The position numbers and the translations under genes were made by a program. From contig CBDDIJ010000003.1 in the NCBI GenBank assembly GCA_965228855.1, positions 3,296,001-3,360,000 on the forward strand: 64,000 nucleotides of DNA, given 5' to 3'. Positions 4,597 through 56,167 of the stretch are shown here, one piece after another. Positions within the stretch are counted from its first letter, which is position 1, and the number at the start of each line of letters is the position of its first letter. The notes under the pieces were generated by a model that saw only the letters and a program-made list of their open reading frames with translations, made no database searches and was not told where the DNA came from. Source of the stretch: Candidatus Obscuribacterales bacterium. Its GTDB lineage: Bacteria > Cyanobacteriota > Vampirovibrionia > Obscuribacterales > Obscuribacteraceae.

Positions 4597-4662
4597 ATAT
4601 CTGGTACCACTTACGGTGCCTTAACATAACCAAAGAGAAACGTGCGAGTCTGTTCGGTCTCC

Positions 4663-4685
4663 AATATTCAGTTTGTTTGAATATT
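4663..4685. promoter_or_regulatory. Perfect inverted repeat AATATTCA-N7-TGAATATT, candidate TF operator
   Basis: Palindrome about 85 bp upstream of the CorA-like gene. Confidence 0.5.
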
Positions 4686-4770
4686 CTCTTAAAGCGCTCT
4701 TAAACTCGCTTCAGCGATAATGGGTTTGAATAAAGCAGAGAAAACAAAGTGAAAAGAAGAGACACTAAAT

Positions 4771-5598
4771 ATGAAAACAATAGTGCCGGAGAACTGGAAG
4801 GTCCCTCTTAAGATTCGCAGTCGATTCGGCGAAACCGCCGGCAAGCAAAGGATCATGACTGCTGACGGACACTTGGTTATTGTTTTGCACGAACCGCCCG
4901 GACCAGACGATGTTGATCGGAGGGCTCGAATTTTATGGCGCGACACCAGTGGTCGTTGGGCATGGAATTGCAGCGGCGATACCATGCACTTACTGAAAAA
5001 GCATATCGCTGACTTCACTCAACACGCCGAACAGCTGGAAAGAAAACTGCAGGTGGCCGCCTGCGCGTCTGATTACTTTTGCATGCTCCAGGCGATCGCG
5101 CCTTTGCATCGCACCTCACGAAACTTGCATGCGACGCTTCAGCAGGCTCGCGAAGCAGTTCCCGATGACCCCGAACTAATTGTCGCACGCGACTCGGCAA
5201 GCGATCTGGAGAGAACGTTTGAACTTCTGCACACTGATGCGAAAAACGGTCTCGATTTTATGGTGGCACAACGAGCGGAGCAGCAATCCCAACGAACATA
5301 CGAGATGGCCGTTTCATCGCATCGACTAAACATACTTGCAGCCGTCTTCTTTCCGATCACAGCAATGAGCAGTGTGCTCGGAATGAACGTTGTTTCCGGT
5401 CTTGAATTCTTACCTGCAAGCACGACATTCTGGGCTGTTCTTCTAATCGGTTTCGGCTCCGGATTGCTCCTCGCCAGAGTAATTTCTGATAAACCGACTA
5501 CAGAGCAAACTGCAACATCGCCTAAAACGAAAACAACAAAGACTTCAGCGATTTATTCCAAAACATCCTCTGGGAAATTGCAAAAGACCGCTCGCTAA
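4771..5598 (+). CDS. CorA-family divalent cation transporter-like protein
   Basis: Long helical stalk, two C-terminal TMs, GMN signature (SVLGMNV). Confidence 0.75.
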   Translation: MKTIVPENWKVPLKIRSRFGETAGKQRIMTADGHLVIVLHEPPGPDDVDRRARILWRDTSGRWAWNCSGDTMHLLKKHIADFTQHAEQLERKLQVAACASDYFCMLQAIAPLHRTSRNLHATLQQAREAVPDDPELIVARDSASDLERTFELLHTDAKNGLDFMVAQRAEQQSQRTYEMAVSSHRLNILAAVFFPITAMSSVLGMNVVSGLEFLPASTTFWAVLLIGFGSGLLLARVISDKPTTEQTATSPKTKTTKTSAIYSKTSSGKLQKTAR

Positions 5599-5651
5599 AT
5601 CATACTGACGGTGCGCCAGCGACTTCGCCGGCCGGCGCAACCCTCACGAGT

Positions 5652-6449
5652 ATGGTAATTGTCATGAATGCATACGTCTTCGGTCTATTGTCTGTAGTTT
5701 CCGCCACGCTGCTGGCCGTTGGTGGCATGCTCCTCGTGCGCAAACGAGTCGGGGTTGATGCGCTCTCGTCATATCACGAAGTGGCGGGTTATCTGCTATC
5801 GGTAGTAGGGACTTTATATGCAGTATTGCTTGGTTTCGTTGTAGTCGATGCAATGGAACATACACAAGAATTAAGAGTGCTCGTCGACCAGGAAGCGAGC
5901 GGTTTGTGCAACATTTATTTGTGTTCCAACGGACTGCCCAGCACAAAGAAAGTAAAGATTCAGTCGCTCTGTAATCATTACGCGGACGCGGTTATCAATG
6001 ATGAATGGCAGGCCATGCAGACGGGCAAGTATAGTGTCACGGCATTTAAAACGGTCTGGTCGATCTGGAAGGAAATTACAAGTTACGCTCCAGAAACCGA
6101 AAGCGAAAAGACTCTTCATCAACAACTCGTGAATGAAATTTGCACTATGACGCAGAATCGCCGCACCAGGATCGTCAGCGCCAGTCACGGAGTAAATCCG
6201 ATCATGTGGACGGTGCTGATTATCGGCGCGATTTTCACGGTTATGTTCACTTATTTTTTTGGAGTGCGAAATCTCAGAGCGCAAATTATCATGACCGTTC
6301 TGGTCGCAATGACGCTCGCGCTCAACGTGCTTTTGGTATTTATTTTCGGAAATCCGTTTTCAGGCGAGTTCGCAATTCAGCCGGATTCATTCAAACTGGA
6401 TCGCATGATTTTCGAAAACTTCGACAAAGGTGTTCCGCCCACGCCATGA
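5652..6449 (+). CDS. DUF4239 (bestrophin-like) membrane protein
   Basis: VGTLYAVLLGFVVV...EA...YADAVINDEW...RRTRI...PFSG pattern with four TMs. Confidence 0.75.
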   Translation: MVIVMNAYVFGLLSVVSATLLAVGGMLLVRKRVGVDALSSYHEVAGYLLSVVGTLYAVLLGFVVVDAMEHTQELRVLVDQEASGLCNIYLCSNGLPSTKKVKIQSLCNHYADAVINDEWQAMQTGKYSVTAFKTVWSIWKEITSYAPETESEKTLHQQLVNEICTMTQNRRTRIVSASHGVNPIMWTVLIIGAIFTVMFTYFFGVRNLRAQIIMTVLVAMTLALNVLLVFIFGNPFSGEFAIQPDSFKLDRMIFENFDKGVPPTP

Positions 6450-43833: not shown

Positions 43834-43884
43834 TTAGTACCGAACGACAATACCCTAAAGTATTCGAATCGGCGCAGCACGTCT

Positions 43885-43953
43885 GTGTGGTAATTCCCCC
43901 TGAGGGCGATTGAAATTGATATAGCTCGAAAAATTCAATCAGGAACAACGTAG
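43885..43953. repeat. Fused copy of the two flanks (53773-53806 and 54085-54118) of the candidate selenoprotein gene
   Basis: taattccccctgagggcgattgaaattga|tatagctcgaaaaattcaatcaggaacaacgtag vs taatccccctgagggcgatagaaattga...tatagctcgaaaaattcaatcaggaacgacctag. Confidence 0.85.
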
Positions 43954-45292: not shown

Positions 45293-48200
45293 TTACGGCG
45301 TGGATGTGCCGTTGCTGCCAGCGGTGCCATTGGTGCCTGTGCCACCGCCGACGGTCCCGCCTGTACCGCCGAGACCGGCGCTGCCACCATCTACGTCGGC
45401 CGGATTTGTCAACACGTTGGTTGTAGTGATCGAGCCGCCGTTTCCACCATTGCCACCGTTGCCGCCATCTCCTCCGGTTACGACAAGGCCTCCGCCACTA
45501 CCGCCGGTGCCGCCGGTGCCGCCATTTCTTCCTGCTGACCTGGCAAAGCCGAGCACGGTAATCGTACCTTTGGAACCGAGATCTATTACTCCACCATTGC
45601 CAGCGAGCGAACCGTCTCCACCATCCGCACCCTCGGCGCGAGTGCCCGTTGCTGAATCACCGCCTGAACCGCCAGTTCCACCAACACCTCCGTTTCCGCC
45701 GGAAGAGTCTACTGTGCCGAAGGTCATGTCTCCTTTAACTTTGGTTGCCGTGACCGAGCCTCCGGATCCGGACTGACCGCCATTTCCTCCAGCTCCTGCG
45801 GCTCCGCCAAAGCTGTTCACGCTGTTTCCTCCAGAACCGCCTGTTCCTCCGGTACCACCAGCGCCACCATTGACCGAAACATCATCCAGACTGAGACTGG
45901 CTGCGGTGAAATCGACTGTTCCACCAAGGCCGCCAGCACCTCCGGCCGCACCTGACGAGCCGGTGCCGCCACCACCACTAGTGGTGCCGACCCCTCCGCT
46001 TCCCCCCGTGCCTCCAGTACCGCCATCGCCACCGAGGGCAAGAACATCGTCGACAAAAGGCGTACCTTTTTTGCTGGTGAGGCTCGCTTGACCGGCGATG
46101 CCGCCATTGCCGCCATTACCTGCAGAACCACCTGCGCCGGCTACGACGGCGGTTATAGAACTACCGCCGGAACCTCCACTTCCGCCAGTGGAACCGCTTC
46201 CGCCGTTGAGAATAATGTCGTTCAATACAGAGATATTTCCGGCTTTAGCTGAGAATATCACGATGCCTCCCGCTCCACCGGCGACACCCGCTGCGCCGTC
46301 GCCTCCGTCTCCGCCACCAGCGCCGCTACCACCTCCGCTACCACCTCCGCCACCATTTCCTGCGCTGCCGGAGGTGCCGCCTGCTACGGAAACCGAATTC
46401 AGATTGATGTTACGCGCACTGTTGAGTTGTATAGTGCCTCCGTTTCCAGCGGCTCCGACGACTCCGGCATTTCCTCCGAAACCTCCGCTTTGAGCGTCCG
46501 CGCCACCACCTACGCCACCACTGCCAGAAGTCGAGAGTCCCGTTCCCGCTCGTGCCTGCAGCAGGTTCGTAATGTTGACATCCGGATTGATTTTCCCCTT
46601 CGTTTTGACCAAAATGAATCCGCCGTTGCCCTGAGCGCCGCTGTCACCGCCAGCGCCACCATTGCCTGCGGCGCCTGTAGTGCCGTTTGCAAAGCCACCG
46701 GTTCCGCCGGCCCCACCATTGCCTCCATCTGTTCCGTCGGCGCGAATCGTGTCGGCCAACAGGGACAGAGCGGATATGGATATGGTGCCACCTAGAGCGC
46801 CATTGCCACCAGTTCCGCCGGTGCCGCCGTCTCCAGCAATTCCGTCTGCAATCAGAGAACCACCAGATCCGCCAACACCACCGACACCGGCCGATCCCCC
46901 GCTGGCGTTAACCAGCCCCAGTACTGTTGCTGCGCCGGTAACGGTTATGTCACCTCCGACGCTGGCGCCCAGTGCCGATCCACCGTCACCGCCTCTACCT
47001 GCGCTTCCGGTCAGACTGGCACCGCCTGTGCCACCATTTCCCCCGGAAGCTGAGGTGGTGTAGGTGCTGGTTATGTCTCCGAGAAAGGAAATGTCGACAG
47101 CGCTGATGTTGATTGAACCATTGGAGCCACCATTTGATGCATTGCCACCATTGCCGCCTGCCCCCCCTGCGGCTGTGCTGTCGTTGTTTCCGCCGTCGCC
47201 GCCATTACCACCACTTCCGGATTGACCACCATAAGACAAGATCTGTGTTGAACCCACGGCCGATATGCTACCCGCCTTCTTCGATGTCAGAAGAGTGACG
47301 GTTTGACCGTCACCGCCAGCGCCACCGGCCCCCCCATTGCCGCCTGCGGCTGCATCCATGGTGTTGTCGGCATCGCCGCCATCGCCGCCGGCTCCACCAT
47401 TGCCGCCGCTGGTGCCCGTGGAGTGGATCACTCCGCCTGCGCGCACGGTGATAGTACCGCGCTCTAACTCCACGCTCACGCTCCGGGAGGATCCTCCGTC
47501 GCCACCTGCTCCGCCGGCGCCACCGACTCCACCAGCGGCCAAAACCGAATTGCCTCCATCTCCGCCTTCTCCACCATCAAAAGCCTGGCCGGCTGCGGAA
47601 ATAATTTGAAGAGCTTCTACATTTCCTATGCCATCCGTCAGGAGTGAGACGAATCCTCCGTCTCCACCCGATCCAGCTGCTCCGCCGGCGCCGCCTGCAC
47701 CGCCATTACCTGTAGTACCATTGCCACCGGCTCCGCCATTGCCGCCGAGACCGCCACTTCCCCCAATCGAGACGAATTGATTGCCTCCGATGTTGCCAGC
47801 TTCAGAGGTGAAGAAGACGCTGCCGGAAGCACCTCCGTTTCCGCCATTACCACCGGCGCCGCCGATTCCACCGGTCGTGAAATTAACGCCGGCACTGCCG
47901 TCACCGGCCGCGCCACCATTGCCACCGTAACTGCCTACGCTCGCGTCGATGAAAATTATGTCGACCGCGCCTACTGAGATGTTGCCCCCGGCACCACCAA
48001 AACCACCATCGCCACCGGCGTTGCCGTCTCCCGAAGAGACGGCACCATCTTGTCCAGCACCGCCGTTGCCTCCGGCTGAACTGATCCCTCCTGTATTTAC
48101 GATCGTAAGGTTGCTCTCGGTCGCAGAAATACTTATGCTGCCGCCCTGGCCACCGGCTCCGCCGTCGGCACCGGGTGCAGTGGCATCAGCCCCGTCGGCA

Positions 48201-50296
48201 CCGTCGGCCGAGACAAGACCCTCGATGTATATATCGCCACCGAGGACCACGATGTTACCGCCGTTCGAACCTGGGATGCTGCCGGATACATTTGTTTCGC
48301 CGCGGAGAACCACAGAATCGCTCGTGGCGATTTGAATAGTTCCCCCTTCAGCTATTAGATTGCCGGTTTCCACAGAGCCCGTTCCCAACTTGGAGCCGAA
48401 ACTGACGCGGCCCTCTCCGACCCCTTCCGTGTCGAATGTCACTTTGAGTTTTGCGTCGGTATTGACGAGCGATATAAAGCCTGCGCCGCCGGAACCACCT
48501 GTCGCGCTGGCCTGGTCCACGTTAATCGCGCTGGAATCGTTTCCGGCTACGACAGAAATCACACCGTTTGCGCCTGTTCCGGAGCCGTTGGCGGAGATTG
48601 TGCCGACATTTAGCCTTCCGGTGTCGCCATCCTTATTTGAAAGCGCGATGATCGAAATTGAACCGGCGTTGCCGTTGTTTATTGCCGAGGCATCAACTGT
48701 AGATGAGGACAACAAAATATCTCCGCCTGTCGCTGATGCTTTGCCTACTTGAACAAAACCCTGTGTGATCGCTCCACTCGTCGTGTCGGTGGTCGGTAAA
48801 GCACCGTCTAACGCCTTCAAGGTCGCGCCTGCGATTATCGTAATTGTATTTCCGTTGTCGCCGGTGTTGCGAGATTGGATGATTCTTGCGTCGCCGTCGT
48901 CCGTGATGTTTCCGCTTGCCAGAATGGCGATTGCTTCATCGAATTGCAAATTCCCGCCGATTGTTATATCGCCCGCGTTATTGAAAAATGTAGGATCTCC
49001 CGTGATCACGCTCTGTCCGAGAACCAGATTCTCGGTCGATGCACCGATATGAGCGATGCCGGCGGATACTTTGAGTTGTCCGGTCAGATCGCCGACAACG
49101 CCATCAGCACTACCTTCGCCTGCATTGATGATCAATTTATTCGAATAATAATCGCCTCCGGATAAGACAATCGCATCGGCCGCGCCGAAATTGTTGTTGC
49201 CGATTGTGATGTCACCATTAGCGGTGAATGTTCCGCCTTGACCATTGATTGATACCAGTCGCGGCGTGCTGCTCACCTGCAGCTGATCTGCGACATTGAT
49301 ATTGCCAGCAGCGGCACTGATATTTCCATTATTGAAAATAGTTACACTCTGCAGACTCAAATTATTGCCGGCCGTAATCGAAGGAATTGATGCGCCGCCC
49401 GTTTCGACCGTATTATAGATTGCACCACCAGCGGTGAGATTGAGGTTGCCATTACCAGTAATACTGCCGCTGTTGACTATGTCCGTGTTCGAAAACAAGT
49501 TTAAATCGAGTGTGTTTGTGCCTGCATCCAGAGTCGCGATGCTACCAGTTGCCGAGTTGCGAATGTGATTGGCGCTGATCGTCGCAGCCAAAACCGACGG
49601 ATCGTTGGAGCGCACCAAGAGATTTCCCGCGTTGCGCAGGTTGCCCGATAAATTAAGCTGTTGAGCTGAAGTGAAGTCACCGGTGACGGTGACATTCTTT
49701 GGAATGTGCAGACTACTAAGATCTTGGACGGATGCTGCATCGAGTGTGAGGTTGCCACCATCCGCGCTACCGTTTCGACCCAGAGACAAACTTTGTCCGC
49801 CTTCTTGCACAACTTGATAAACTGCGGCGAGTTCTGCAGCAGTCAGCGTGGTGCCACTGTTTACATGAAGCTCTTGTCCGCCGCGTGAGATAGTGACGTT
49901 GCCGCTTAAATTCGTAATCGAATATGAGTCGCGTCTCGATCTCAAGTTCAAGTCCGACGGAAGCTGAGTCAGATCGACTGCTGTAATTCGCCGAGAGGCA
50001 CGGTCGGCGGCTTGCATGTTCTGGAGCGCATGAATCGATCTTGCGGTGTCGAACTGCATGCGGTTTTCCATTCGAAGAATTCGTGCTTCGTGGCGACTTG
50101 CTTTGTCGCTCATTTCAAGAACGCGCTCGTTGCGTTCGCGAACCGGACGCTCATTGTTGAACGCTCTTCGGGTGGCATTCTGTATCGCGCTATCAAAAGA
50201 GCGATCGTGTGCGTGTGCCGCCAGCGATGCCTGCGTCGATAATGCAAGTAATGTCAGAACAGCAAAAGTGTATTCACATCTCTTGTACTTCTTCAT
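45293..50296 (-). CDS. Large secreted Gly-rich repeat protein (hemagglutinin-like N-terminal repeats plus PE_PGRS-like GGxGGx tracts)
   Basis: 1667 aa, Sec signal (ASLA), N.G.I..L.L.A repeats, then about 950 aa of GGNGGAGG blocks alternating with beta-strand spacers. Confidence 0.85.
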   Translation of the reverse strand: MKKYKRCEYTFAVLTLLALSTQASLAAHAHDRSFDSAIQNATRRAFNNERPVRERNERVLEMSDKASRHEARILRMENRMQFDTARSIHALQNMQAADRASRRITAVDLTQLPSDLNLRSRRDSYSITNLSGNVTISRGGQELHVNSGTTLTAAELAAVYQVVQEGGQSLSLGRNGSADGGNLTLDAASVQDLSSLHIPKNVTVTGDFTSAQQLNLSGNLRNAGNLLVRSNDPSVLAATISANHIRNSATGSIATLDAGTNTLDLNLFSNTDIVNSGSITGNGNLNLTAGGAIYNTVETGGASIPSITAGNNLSLQSVTIFNNGNISAAAGNINVADQLQVSSTPRLVSINGQGGTFTANGDITIGNNNFGAADAIVLSGGDYYSNKLIINAGEGSADGVVGDLTGQLKVSAGIAHIGASTENLVLGQSVITGDPTFFNNAGDITIGGNLQFDEAIAILASGNITDDGDARIIQSRNTGDNGNTITIIAGATLKALDGALPTTDTTSGAITQGFVQVGKASATGGDILLSSSTVDASAINNGNAGSISIIALSNKDGDTGRLNVGTISANGSGTGANGVISVVAGNDSSAINVDQASATGGSGGAGFISLVNTDAKLKVTFDTEGVGEGRVSFGSKLGTGSVETGNLIAEGGTIQIATSDSVVLRGETNVSGSIPGSNGGNIVVLGGDIYIEGLVSADGADGADATAPGADGGAGGQGGSISISATESNLTIVNTGGISSAGGNGGAGQDGAVSSGDGNAGGDGGFGGAGGNISVGAVDIIFIDASVGSYGGNGGAAGDGSAGVNFTTGGIGGAGGNGGNGGASGSVFFTSEAGNIGGNQFVSIGGSGGLGGNGGAGGNGTTGNGGAGGAGGAAGSGGDGGFVSLLTDGIGNVEALQIISAAGQAFDGGEGGDGGNSVLAAGGVGGAGGAGGDGGSSRSVSVELERGTITVRAGGVIHSTGTSGGNGGAGGDGGDADNTMDAAAGGNGGAGGAGGDGQTVTLLTSKKAGSISAVGSTQILSYGGQSGSGGNGGDGGNNDSTAAGGAGGNGGNASNGGSNGSINISAVDISFLGDITSTYTTSASGGNGGTGGASLTGSAGRGGDGGSALGASVGGDITVTGAATVLGLVNASGGSAGVGGVGGSGGSLIADGIAGDGGTGGTGGNGALGGTISISALSLLADTIRADGTDGGNGGAGGTGGFANGTTGAAGNGGAGGDSGAQGNGGFILVKTKGKINPDVNITNLLQARAGTGLSTSGSGGVGGGADAQSGGFGGNAGVVGAAGNGGTIQLNSARNINLNSVSVAGGTSGSAGNGGGGGSGGGSGAGGGDGGDGAAGVAGGAGGIVIFSAKAGNISVLNDIILNGGSGSTGGSGGSGGSSITAVVAGAGGSAGNGGNGGIAGQASLTSKKGTPFVDDVLALGGDGGTGGTGGSGGVGTTSGGGGTGSSGAAGGAGGLGGTVDFTAASLSLDDVSVNGGAGGTGGTGGSGGNSVNSFGGAAGAGGNGGQSGSGGSVTATKVKGDMTFGTVDSSGGNGGVGGTGGSGGDSATGTRAEGADGGDGSLAGNGGVIDLGSKGTITVLGFARSAGRNGGTGGTGGSGGGLVVTGGDGGNGGNGGNGGSITTTNVLTNPADVDGGSAGLGGTGGTVGGGTGTNGTAGSNGTSTP

Positions 50297-53538: not shown

Positions 53539-53811
53539 GAAGCGTTCGGATTATTGGTGTTGCGTGCTAGATTGCGGCTTATGTCGAACTCCGCACTATG
53601 GTAGCAGTTTCAGAGCAGCGCTCGCTGGTTTCAAGTAGACGAAGGATGACGTGAATGAGCAATTCCGCCTGGAAGCTGACTTTACCAGTGGCAATATCTC
53701 AAGCAGCGAACTGTATAACTTCTGGCATGAACACTTCGACAATTATAAGTTAGATGACGTGAAGTCCCGTCCGTGTTGTAATCCCCCTGAGGGCGATAGA
53801 AATTGAATTAG

Positions 53812-54066
53812 CTATCGCATGTCCTTCTTCGGTGGCGTCTCAACGCGTTTCAGGCCAAAATCTTCAGCGTCAACTTCCTTCTTGTTGCTCTTCTGCTCGA
53901 CCGAGCAGTTGCGGGACATTCAAGTCTGAATGCCCATCTTCGGGAGGATCCAAAGTTGCATTGCAAAATACAACACAACGAATCCAAAGAACAAAAATAC
54001 GTTTTCCATCACGTTCACCGTTGTTCGCTTTATTGGTGAGTTAGCATCTGTCGTAGTACGCATCAT
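53812..54066 (-). CDS. Candidate small single-TM selenoprotein (in-frame UGA at 53920-53922), absent from the ORF track
   Basis: GAGGTG RBS; MMRTTTDANSPIKRTTVNVMENVFLFFGFVVLYFAMQLWILPKMGIQT-UGA-MSRNCSVEQKSNKKEVDAEDFGLKRVETPPKKDMR-TAG; SECIS-like hairpin after the UGA. Confidence 0.65.
53893..53919 (-). promoter_or_regulatory. Putative bacterial SECIS element
   Basis: UGA + 11 nt (AUGUCCCGCAA) + stem CUGCUC / loop GGUC / GAGCAG. Confidence 0.6.
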
Positions 54067-54301
54067 ATTCACCTCTGACTTAAGTATAGCTCGAAAAATT
54101 CAATCAGGAACGACCTAGCAATCAGCCGCGGTCGAACTGGTAGAAACGAGTCCAAAGTCGCGGTGGAGTCAGGAAGCGTGCCGGTTCATCAAATAAGCGG
54201 AATGCAGGAAGAGAGTTGCACGCTGCCGGATATCGCGGTTTAATACTAAAGTTAAGCAACCGGACAAATCGCCGGCAGTCATACGGAGTCTCTTCAATCA
54301 G

Positions 54302-56167
54302 ATGGCAACAAATCACCGCAGGTTTCAACTTGCACTAGCTCTGGCGGTCTCATTGCTTATGCCACTGCCCGCGGCGGCAAGTGATGAACAAGAATCCAGC
54401 GCAGATCCTGTTGATACCGGAGTCGTCACAGAATCCGCCAAAGCAGCTGTCGAATCGAAGGCATCAACGAATTTGATGACTGAACCGCCGAAGATACCTG
54501 ACCTGCCGGCACCGGTGCCAGGCGAGGAGAAACTTGTAGAGCGGCTGTCCAAACGCGACTTCGAGACAGCGCAGAAGTTGATTAAGAAACGGTTGAGTAG
54601 GAAAAACACCCGCGCCCAGAAGGCGGAACTGCTAAATCTCCTTGCTTACACTTACTACAGACAGAACAAAACCCGCAGTGCCATAAAAATTTTGGAACAT
54701 CTTTCGGATGACAATACCTCGAAGGAAGGCAAACGCGCAGGTGTTTTGCGAGAGAAGAGGCTAGCCGACATGTACGTTCATCTACCTGATGAACAGAAAG
54801 CAATCGAGATGTACAAGTCTGCACTCGCAAAAGCAAATAAATACGATCGCAACGATTCAATCCGAATATCAATTTTGGAACCGCTTACCGGACTGCTTGT
54901 AGAGAAGAAGGAATTCGAAGAAGCTCAGCCATATGCGGAAGAGCTAACATCACTCTGCACCGCTCGAGTCAAAGCCGGACATATCGCGGAAGTCGTTTCA
55001 CTTTTCTGGGCGCATACACACCTGGCAAGGATTTATAACGAAACCAAAAACTCTGATGCGTCAGCAAAATTTACCCCTCAACTTCTAGCACTGCTCGATC
55101 CTTTACTTACACTATCAGCGAAATACCAGGCGAATTCACTCGAAGAAGATCAAAAGGCATATGTGCGCTTTCAGAACAAGATGCGGGACGAATTCATCGA
55201 AGATAACACGCCCAGGACATTGTCAGAATATCTCTGGCTGAGCTCACAATTCAGAATGCGCGATCTCCCGCTTACAAACTGGACTGCAAGCACCGGAGCG
55301 AAACCTAAAGCTGCTATTCTATGTGTTCACGCATTGGGATTGAGCAACCGGGCTTTCGGTCCCTTAGCGAAGGAGCTGACGAACCGCGGATTCACGGTCT
55401 ACGCGATGGATGTTCGCGGCTTCGGCGCATGGCAACACGAATTCGGAAGCGAGACAGTTCACTTCGAACGAGCTATGGATGATGTCAAATCCATTTTGCA
55501 ACTTATCAAAATGCGCGAGCCAGGCAAGCCGGTTTTTCTACTCGGGGAATCGATGGGCGGAGCAATTGTGCTGAGGGCCGCAAGCGACTATGCCGGCGAG
55601 ATGTCTGGCGTTATATCTTCGGCGCCCTCGGCGAAGCGTTACGGTGAGGCAAAACTTGCAGCGCTTGTTGCCCTTCACTTGTTCAGAAAACCAACCCAGC
55701 CATTCGATATCGGCGAGCAATTGGCTCAACAAGCCACTAGCCAGGAAGATTTACGCGAGATATGGAAACATGACCCGCGAGCGAAGGTCTCCTTAACTCC
55801 TATCGAATTGATCAAGTTCAATAAGTTCATGATCGACACAAGCAAGTCATGCAGCTCGATAGACAATGTGCCGATCATGGTCGTGCAAGGGCAAGCCGAC
55901 AAGTTGGCAAAGCCGCAAGGGACCTATCAGATGTACGATTCTGTTTCCTCAAAAGACAAAGCGATGCTCATTCTAGGCGACGCGGAACACCTTATTTTTG
56001 AACTGCCGAATCAATCAAAAGTTCTGCTCGACGGTGTGACAAGTTGGTTGGATAATCACCTGGCAATGCAAGCGTCGAAGCCTATACCGAAGCCCGTAAC
56101 TTTAGAAAACAAAACCGAGAAGCAAAGCAAGGCTCGAAAAGCAGCGCGAAAAAAGGCTCAGCTTTGA
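54302..56167 (+). CDS. Secreted TPR + alpha/beta hydrolase (lysophospholipase/monoglyceride lipase-like)
   Basis: Signal peptide, TPR-like helices, DVRGFG, GESMGG nucleophile elbow, QGQAD, AEHLIFE. Confidence 0.85.
   Translation: MATNHRRFQLALALAVSLLMPLPAAASDEQESSADPVDTGVVTESAKAAVESKASTNLMTEPPKIPDLPAPVPGEEKLVERLSKRDFETAQKLIKKRLSRKNTRAQKAELLNLLAYTYYRQNKTRSAIKILEHLSDDNTSKEGKRAGVLREKRLADMYVHLPDEQKAIEMYKSALAKANKYDRNDSIRISILEPLTGLLVEKKEFEEAQPYAEELTSLCTARVKAGHIAEVVSLFWAHTHLARIYNETKNSDASAKFTPQLLALLDPLLTLSAKYQANSLEEDQKAYVRFQNKMRDEFIEDNTPRTLSEYLWLSSQFRMRDLPLTNWTASTGAKPKAAILCVHALGLSNRAFGPLAKELTNRGFTVYAMDVRGFGAWQHEFGSETVHFERAMDDVKSILQLIKMREPGKPVFLLGESMGGAIVLRAASDYAGEMSGVISSAPSAKRYGEAKLAALVALHLFRKPTQPFDIGEQLAQQATSQEDLREIWKHDPRAKVSLTPIELIKFNKFMIDTSKSCSSIDNVPIMVVQGQADKLAKPQGTYQMYDSVSSKDKAMLILGDAEHLIFELPNQSKVLLDGVTSWLDNHLAMQASKPIPKPVTLENKTEKQSKARKAARKKAQL

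Follow-up and report, generated by a model that had tools for sequence, protein, structure and literature searches.

A small gene on the minus strand of a contig from Candidatus Obscuribacterales very likely encodes a membrane selenoprotein of about 65 amino acids with a single helix. The gene lies in the window, the 64,000-nucleotide stretch of DNA analysed here, and as judged from its sequence it adds a member to a selenoprotein family that had been predicted before without being named, and for which we found no Pfam or NCBIfam model and no proposed function. Members of this family are missed or truncated by gene callers and lack such models, yet they are common in several phyla. Two observations on the family are new: it is represented in Obscuribacterales, Acidobacteriota, Planctomycetota, and Verrucomicrobiota, and the small gene often closes operons that contain rhodanese, persulfide dioxygenase, CoA-disulfide reductase, SQR, or TauE genes.

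In-frame UGA and downstream hairpin

The reading frame begins with an ATG at position 54066, runs for 84 codons on the minus strand, and ends with TAG (53814-53812). Codon 49 is TGA (53922-53920), after which 35 further sense codons precede the TAG. A Shine-Dalgarno-like GAGGTG (54070-54075) is located ahead of the ATG codons at 54066 and 54063. All of these elements, from which a first-pass annotation had proposed an 84-aa membrane selenoprotein, were found in place. The selenoprotein part of that proposal was upheld by comparative analysis, in which none of the three observations named there as refuting it was made; the length was probably overestimated. Starts giving 84, 83, or 65 aa are candidates; homologues start 28–29 codons ahead of the UGA, which corresponds to Met20 of the 84-codon frame (ATG 54009, preceded at 5 nt by a weaker GGTG). 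The first 19 codons (54010-54066) are an optional N-terminal extension kept only in the closest relatives, and the closest named relatives are also Candidatus Obscuribacterales (L034, 95% identical). Family conservation thus starts from Met20, and the conserved protein is probably 65 rather than 84 aa long (53812-54009), with the predicted selenocysteine U30 (53920-53922) and a second Cys, C35 (53905-53907), forming a U-x4-C pair.

A perfect 6-bp stem closing a GGUC loop (53908-53893) starts 11 nt after the UGA, as had been noted from the sequence, and was obtained in all three folds tried; the loop itself follows the UGA by 17 nt. It satisfies the bSECIS constraints published in PMC13188914 (loop 3–9 nt, stem 4–16 bp, G in loop positions 1-2, spacing 16–37 nt, MFE ≤ −7.5 kcal/mol), which were applied in our own implementation and not with the bSECISearch program. 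The 4-nt loop, the 6-bp stem, the G in first loop position (GG), the 17-nt spacing, and an energy of −9 to −10 kcal/mol are shared with the bSECIS consensus of the same source, from which the family differs in that loop and stem sequences vary between phyla while the position is kept.

Hairpin energy alone is unexceptional (z = −1.0 to +1.3), and 8% of 8,872 sampled genomic TGAs, taken as random background, carry a hairpin that passes the rule. It is the conservation in homologues that places the hairpin beyond chance. With duplicate contexts removed, a stem that spans at least 5 bp and carries a G-led loop 16–26 nt downstream of the UGA was detected in 157 of the 167 distinct TGA contexts, compared with 41.3 expected under synonymous recoding, and in one of the eight distinct Cys contexts (1.2 expected). 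Among 71 members from a GTDB scan, synonymous positions are free before the UGA and nearly fixed in the stem (TCG in 60/67, GTC in 59/61). Compensatory changes are also seen among the stem pairs, with C-G to U-A in 9/68. C35, invariant in two homologue alignments, is coded within this stem. Almost certainly, SelB would bind the hairpin and insert Sec at the UGA.

The codon at the Sec site was further compared in 175 distinct DNA contexts from several phyla, which gave TGA in 167 and Cys in eight, and never TAA or TAG; the true stop codons of the same family are mixed (62 TGA, 52 TAA, and 50 TAG). The in-frame UGA is therefore aligned with Cys in homologues, and coding is conserved on both sides of it, with Cys at the C35 position in 164 of 174 distinct members and a second Cys absent in four. 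The tails (16–79 aa) are not conserved. Were the UGA a true stop, the locus would encode a membrane peptide of 29–48 aa and a translationally coupled ORF of 35 aa, a reading which could appeal to the ATG directly after the UGA here and in 118/167 contexts and to the truncated form called in databases. A coupled second ORF was rejected, because the UGA is followed by a non-start codon in 45/167 contexts, in which the downstream Cys is still kept; in addition, all 167 contexts have 16 or more open codons in frame past the UGA (15 open codons are reached in the other two frames in 54% and 44%), and an SD-like site lies ahead of the post-UGA codon in just 5/167, compared with 105/145 for the conserved Met. 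Considering also that no TAA or TAG substitutes were found, that continuous Cys-type homologues are abundant (49 of 125 stored and 102 of 141 newly listed proteins), and that the hairpin is lost in Cys forms, we regard a true stop as extremely improbable.

No second copy of the small gene was detected in the host genome (G000), the next-best match scoring 5.6 bits versus 69.5, and the locus sequence is the same in two assembled-contig sets. A scan for sigma-70 promoters and terminators found none. The upstream flank of the gene (54085-54118) recurs at about 43920-43953 of the window, where it adjoins a second version of the downstream flank (53768-53813) at about 43880-43926; the two copies have 87% and 94% identity to the flanks of the small gene. 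This arrangement (43880-43953; G000:C3:3339880-3339953), 10 kb away and without the gene, resembles an empty site, which suggests that a promoter/leader was duplicated and that one of the copies may have gained, or the other lost, a cassette of RBS and ORF. It is located upstream of a 222-aa ORF with no Pfam match (43833-43165, minus strand). Another minus-strand gene of the window (45293-50296) encodes a Gly-rich repetitive protein of 1,667 aa with an N-terminal hydrophobic leader.

Distribution of the family and the Sec trait

The first-pass annotation recognised no classical selenoprotein family in this gene. This agrees with our scans against Pfam and NCBIfam, run with the query and with sets of 24, 30, and 36 homologues, none of which gave a meaningful match, and in a PDB sequence search nothing was better than E 0.3. 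The family had nevertheless been predicted as a selenoprotein already: the published deep-Sep supplement contains it as a G. lovleyi-type hypothetical selenoprotein, without a function. Compared by eye, the six entries of this type share a helix ending in LP-x-x-G-x-x-T-U, followed by x4-C and a short charged tail, and the window protein has the same succession of transmembrane helix, motif, and short tail; it differs in coming from a non-photosynthetic member of Cyanobacteriota. Two profile matches (P0059 and P0141) have a core nearly identical to entries of the supplement, and similar database proteins were matched at E values of about 1e-9 to 1e-13. The available main-text passages and supplements of deep-Sep give no function, topology, neighbourhood, or distribution for the family; in the accessible parts, the G. 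lovleyi-type name or motif is absent from its Table S1 and the name from its main text. Likewise, no entry in the accessible part of the 119-family table of a 2026 review (PMC13188914) could be matched to the family, and the name was not found in the available text of that review, of PMC9312934, or of the BSepDB main text (PMC13326102). A full-text literature search for selenoprotein, Geobacter lovleyi, and hypothetical protein returned no paper, and no paper assigning a function to the family was found in our literature searches; Haft and Tolstoy 2025 and the BSepDB site might list it.

Among 41 genomes (the host and its relatives), 16 have the gene, and 24 of the 25 matches carry TGA at the predicted Sec site and one TGC. 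The GTDB scan yielded 195 confirmed stretches, from which 79 loci were kept (79 copies with TGA and one with TGT), and metagenomes yielded 127, from which 80 were kept (70 TGA, 10 TGC). The gene was found in 25 of 251 sampled Planctomycetota genomes, with TGA within the match in all, and in 74 of 251 Acidobacteriota genomes, with TGA within 72 of 76 matches; the 20 Acidobacteriota matches examined codon by codon all have TGA. In a 300-genome sample of its own phylum, the gene was detected in no searched genome besides the host, and none of 21 pattern matches in viral contigs was confirmed.

At the protein level, a full HMM search returned 1,476 clusters (50% identity) at E 0.001 or better, and the ESM Atlas contains one unnamed cluster with 123 members (score 0.90). 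The expectation that gene callers would truncate or miss the gene proved right, as 72 of the 125 stored database proteins stop exactly at the Thr before the site; besides the 49 that go on with Cys, two have W, one has R, and one was mis-parsed. In addition to the 102 with Cys, the 141 newly listed proteins of the HMM search comprise 30 with W, seven with another residue, and two that were not parsed. The W is probably a code-4 misreading of TGA, since at least one of the proteins with W (P0137) closely resembles a TGA locus (L097), to the point of near identity. One Cys form (L035) retains the hairpin and shares 88% DNA identity with a Sec form, which fits a recent Sec-to-Cys switch; it is the only clearly recent change of this kind, and counting such changes is beyond the resolution of the protein tree (41 columns, quick method).

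SelA, SelB, SelD, and tRNA-Sec (anticodon TCA) were all detected in the host genome above curated cut-offs; its SelD is itself of the Cys type. A scan of this genome for TGA codons followed by a hairpin gave 508 candidates, mostly noise, of which four were recognised by eye and then tested. They are predicted MsrA, SelW-like, TlpA-like, and ArsC-like selenoprotein genes (in this order G000:C2:2345996, C2:1482372, and C5:1078754 on the minus strand, and C3:2656332 on the plus strand) with TGA and hairpins of similar geometry. When TGA was read through, MsrA, SelW-like, and ArsC-like scored above NCBIfam cut-offs, and the TlpA-like match was below. A passage of a 2022 review (PMC9312934) lists Cyanobacteria among the lineages that appeared to be without Sec, whereas the present genome documents the complete Sec system and five or more selenoproteins in non-photosynthetic Cyanobacteriota.

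Judged on SelA only, the TGA form is restricted to genomes with the Sec trait. SelA is present in 15/15 relatives with the small gene versus 10/25 relatives without it, all of them kin and hence not independent. In Planctomycetota, 23 of the 25 genomes with the TGA gene contain SelA versus 188/251 overall, which is a weak test; the two genomes that gave no SelA match are both MAGs.

Genomic context of the small gene

Five kinds of sulfur genes were counted around the small gene: rhodanese-YgaP, persulfide dioxygenase-rhodanese (a putative label, read from an architecture of MBL-fold plus rhodanese), CoA-disulfide reductase-rhodanese, TauE, and SQR. At least one of them was present in 22/64 loci of Obscuribacterales, 5/20 of the Acidobacteriota sample, 2/4 other loci, 8/80 metagenome loci (many of which are short), 1/20 loci of Planctomycetota, and 0/11 of Verrucomicrobiota, and in 0.6% of random 10-kb windows of a single genome (G000) used as background. 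Most small-gene loci have no sulfur gene within reach, and the operon-linked copies of Obscuribacterales mostly belong to one subclade and are not independent. In different loci, the small gene was found directly after each of the five sulfur genes, indicating that the link survives operon reshuffling. Recurrent neighbours also include a type III SQR-like protein (below cut-off), an ArsR with a conserved C-x3-C, ars genes, an RND permease, and Hydrolase_4.

Many homologues occupy a co-oriented terminal position in a sulfur cluster, and the window copy does not. It is outside the sulfur operon of its genome (C3, about 1.245-1.254 Mb), which lacks the small gene. The genes in that region (G000:C3:1245000-1253600) are CoA-disulfide reductase-rhodanese, ArsR, rhodanese-YgaP, TauE, persulfide dioxygenase-rhodanese, and SQR, and the cluster adjoins a Hydrolase_4 paralogue. 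In the window, the small gene is flanked by two downstream Ser/Thr kinases and by a divergent Hydrolase_4 gene (54302-56167), followed by a CzcA-type pump. The Hydrolase_4 gene is downstream and on the same strand in 13 other loci. Directly adjacent to the small gene and co-oriented in 13 GTDB-scan loci is a gene for a methyltransferase-like protein of about 240 aa (e.g., L103:5155-5877), whose homologue in the host genome is about 13 kb from the small gene, just outside the window.

Topology and candidate function

AlphaFold modelling gave one confident helix over residues 2–24 (53938-54006; pLDDT 91–93 over residues 1–20), then a coil of low confidence (mean pLDDT 69), and hydropathy peaks at 2.3 in this predicted transmembrane helix, in agreement with the single helix and U-x4-C pair described earlier. 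The first five residues average 0.29 K/R and 0.89 D/E, and the 22 residues around U average 3.6 K/R and 2.0 D/E (the two stretches differ in length). Under the positive-inside rule for membrane proteins, the acidic N-terminus and the basic C-side argue for an N-out/C-in topology, which we consider likely and which would place U30 and C35 at the cytoplasmic membrane surface.

Of the known types compared, YgaP-like/DUF2892 proteins, thioredoxin-fold selenoproteins, and lipoproteins were rejected. Homology with the YgaP-like/DUF2892 domain (PF11127), which is found in the same operons as the small gene, was not supported by profile-profile comparison (probability 0.3%; five sequences in the YgaP/DUF2892 profile) or by any Pfam match, and that domain has two helices where the small protein has one; a single stand-alone member has in common a motif of 9 residues at the end of the helix, terminating in T-C (hhalign probability 36%). 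A thioredoxin-fold UxxC/CxxU selenoprotein does not agree with a single helix plus coil, a spacer of four residues in nearly all members, and the absence of a family match. Lipoproteins processed by signal peptidase II have a basic N-region and a lipobox with G, A, or S before the Cys; in this family, the N-terminus is acidic and Thr precedes U/C in nearly all members. The eukaryotic SELENOK and SELENOS are single-pass proteins with Sec in a disordered cytosolic tail. Their likeness to the small protein is one of architecture alone and serves as a works-like analogy (a small single-pass membrane protein with Sec in the tail). The small protein differs in that its predicted Sec would lie right at the membrane surface, four residues ahead of a Cys, and in that its SECIS is part of the coding sequence.

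In the reading that we favour, based on the sequence and its neighbourhoods, the small protein would be a membrane redox relay for sulfane sulfur, whose cytoplasm-facing U30-x4-C35 would handle reactive sulfur; we give this proposal an even chance. For the chemistry, a three-step scheme is plausible but falls slightly short of that. SQR or a rhodanese-YgaP protein would supply a persulfide, polysulfide, or disulfide at the membrane, and its sulfur would be attacked by the selenolate. C35 would then resolve this to a selenenyl-sulfide, after which the relay would be reset by a reductase of the soluble fraction, either CoA-disulfide/persulfide reductase or thioredoxin. More tentatively, and rather doubtfully, the family could be a missing, un-annotated part of sulfide/persulfide detoxification, i.e., a SELENOK/SELENOS-like selenol/thiol relay from SQR or rhodanese-YgaP to soluble reductases. 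If true, the family would be one of the most widespread overlooked bacterial selenoproteins, given its presence in 74/251 Acidobacteriota genomes and the 1,476 clusters, and selenium would be tied to sulfide detoxification at the membrane. The neighbourhoods provide the first testable function found for the family, and its functional core of about 40 residues should lend itself well to synthesis and assays.

If the protein were instead an antioxidant or thiol-disulfide relay serving the membrane in general, without specificity for sulfide and linked to the sulfur operons only by shared redox-stress regulation, this would account for the many stand-alone loci (the majority), for the general redox enzymes among the other selenoproteins of the host, and for thioredoxin as a recurrent neighbour. 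We consider it unlikely, as the gene is repeatedly placed right behind different sulfur-detoxification genes in two phyla.

Also unlikely, and marginally more so, is a U-x4-C selenoprotein that binds a soft metal or metalloid (As, Cd/Zn, or Hg) as an efflux accessory, in the way that AcrZ serves AcrB as a small accessory protein. An RND permease is present in 5/20 loci of Acidobacteriota, 2/20 of Planctomycetota, 4/80 of metagenomes, and 3/64 of Obscuribacterales, several loci include ArsA/ArsD/Acr3/ArsC genes and a P-type ATPase for heavy metals, and the CzcA-type pump of the window is 2.1 kb from the small gene. However, such neighbours are rarer than sulfur genes and often found in the same islands, and these genomes commonly contain RND genes, with 12 spots in G000.

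More improbable still is a membrane redox sensor, or an accessory anti-sigma component, that would couple thiol or sulfur stress to an ECF sigma factor. An ECF sigma ORF that begins about 35 nt past the UGA, and so overlaps the tail of the small gene, was found in 30/80 metagenome loci and one locus of Planctomycetota, often followed by a zf-HC2 anti-sigma gene; yet this link hardly extends beyond a single clade of similar metagenome loci, and none of the 64 loci of Obscuribacterales or the 20 of Acidobacteriota shows it.

Two gene arrangements recurred around the small gene. In L241 (about 5000-6100), as in 29 more loci from metagenomes, it is located between a pair encoding a 4Fe-4S protein and a membrane protein and the ECF sigma gene. 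In the Verrucomicrobiota loci L090, L097, L100, L102, L106, L107, and L109 (about 4600-4970), it follows argininosuccinate synthase and a truncated-globin gene, and the hairpin of these copies has a different sequence with the same spacing.
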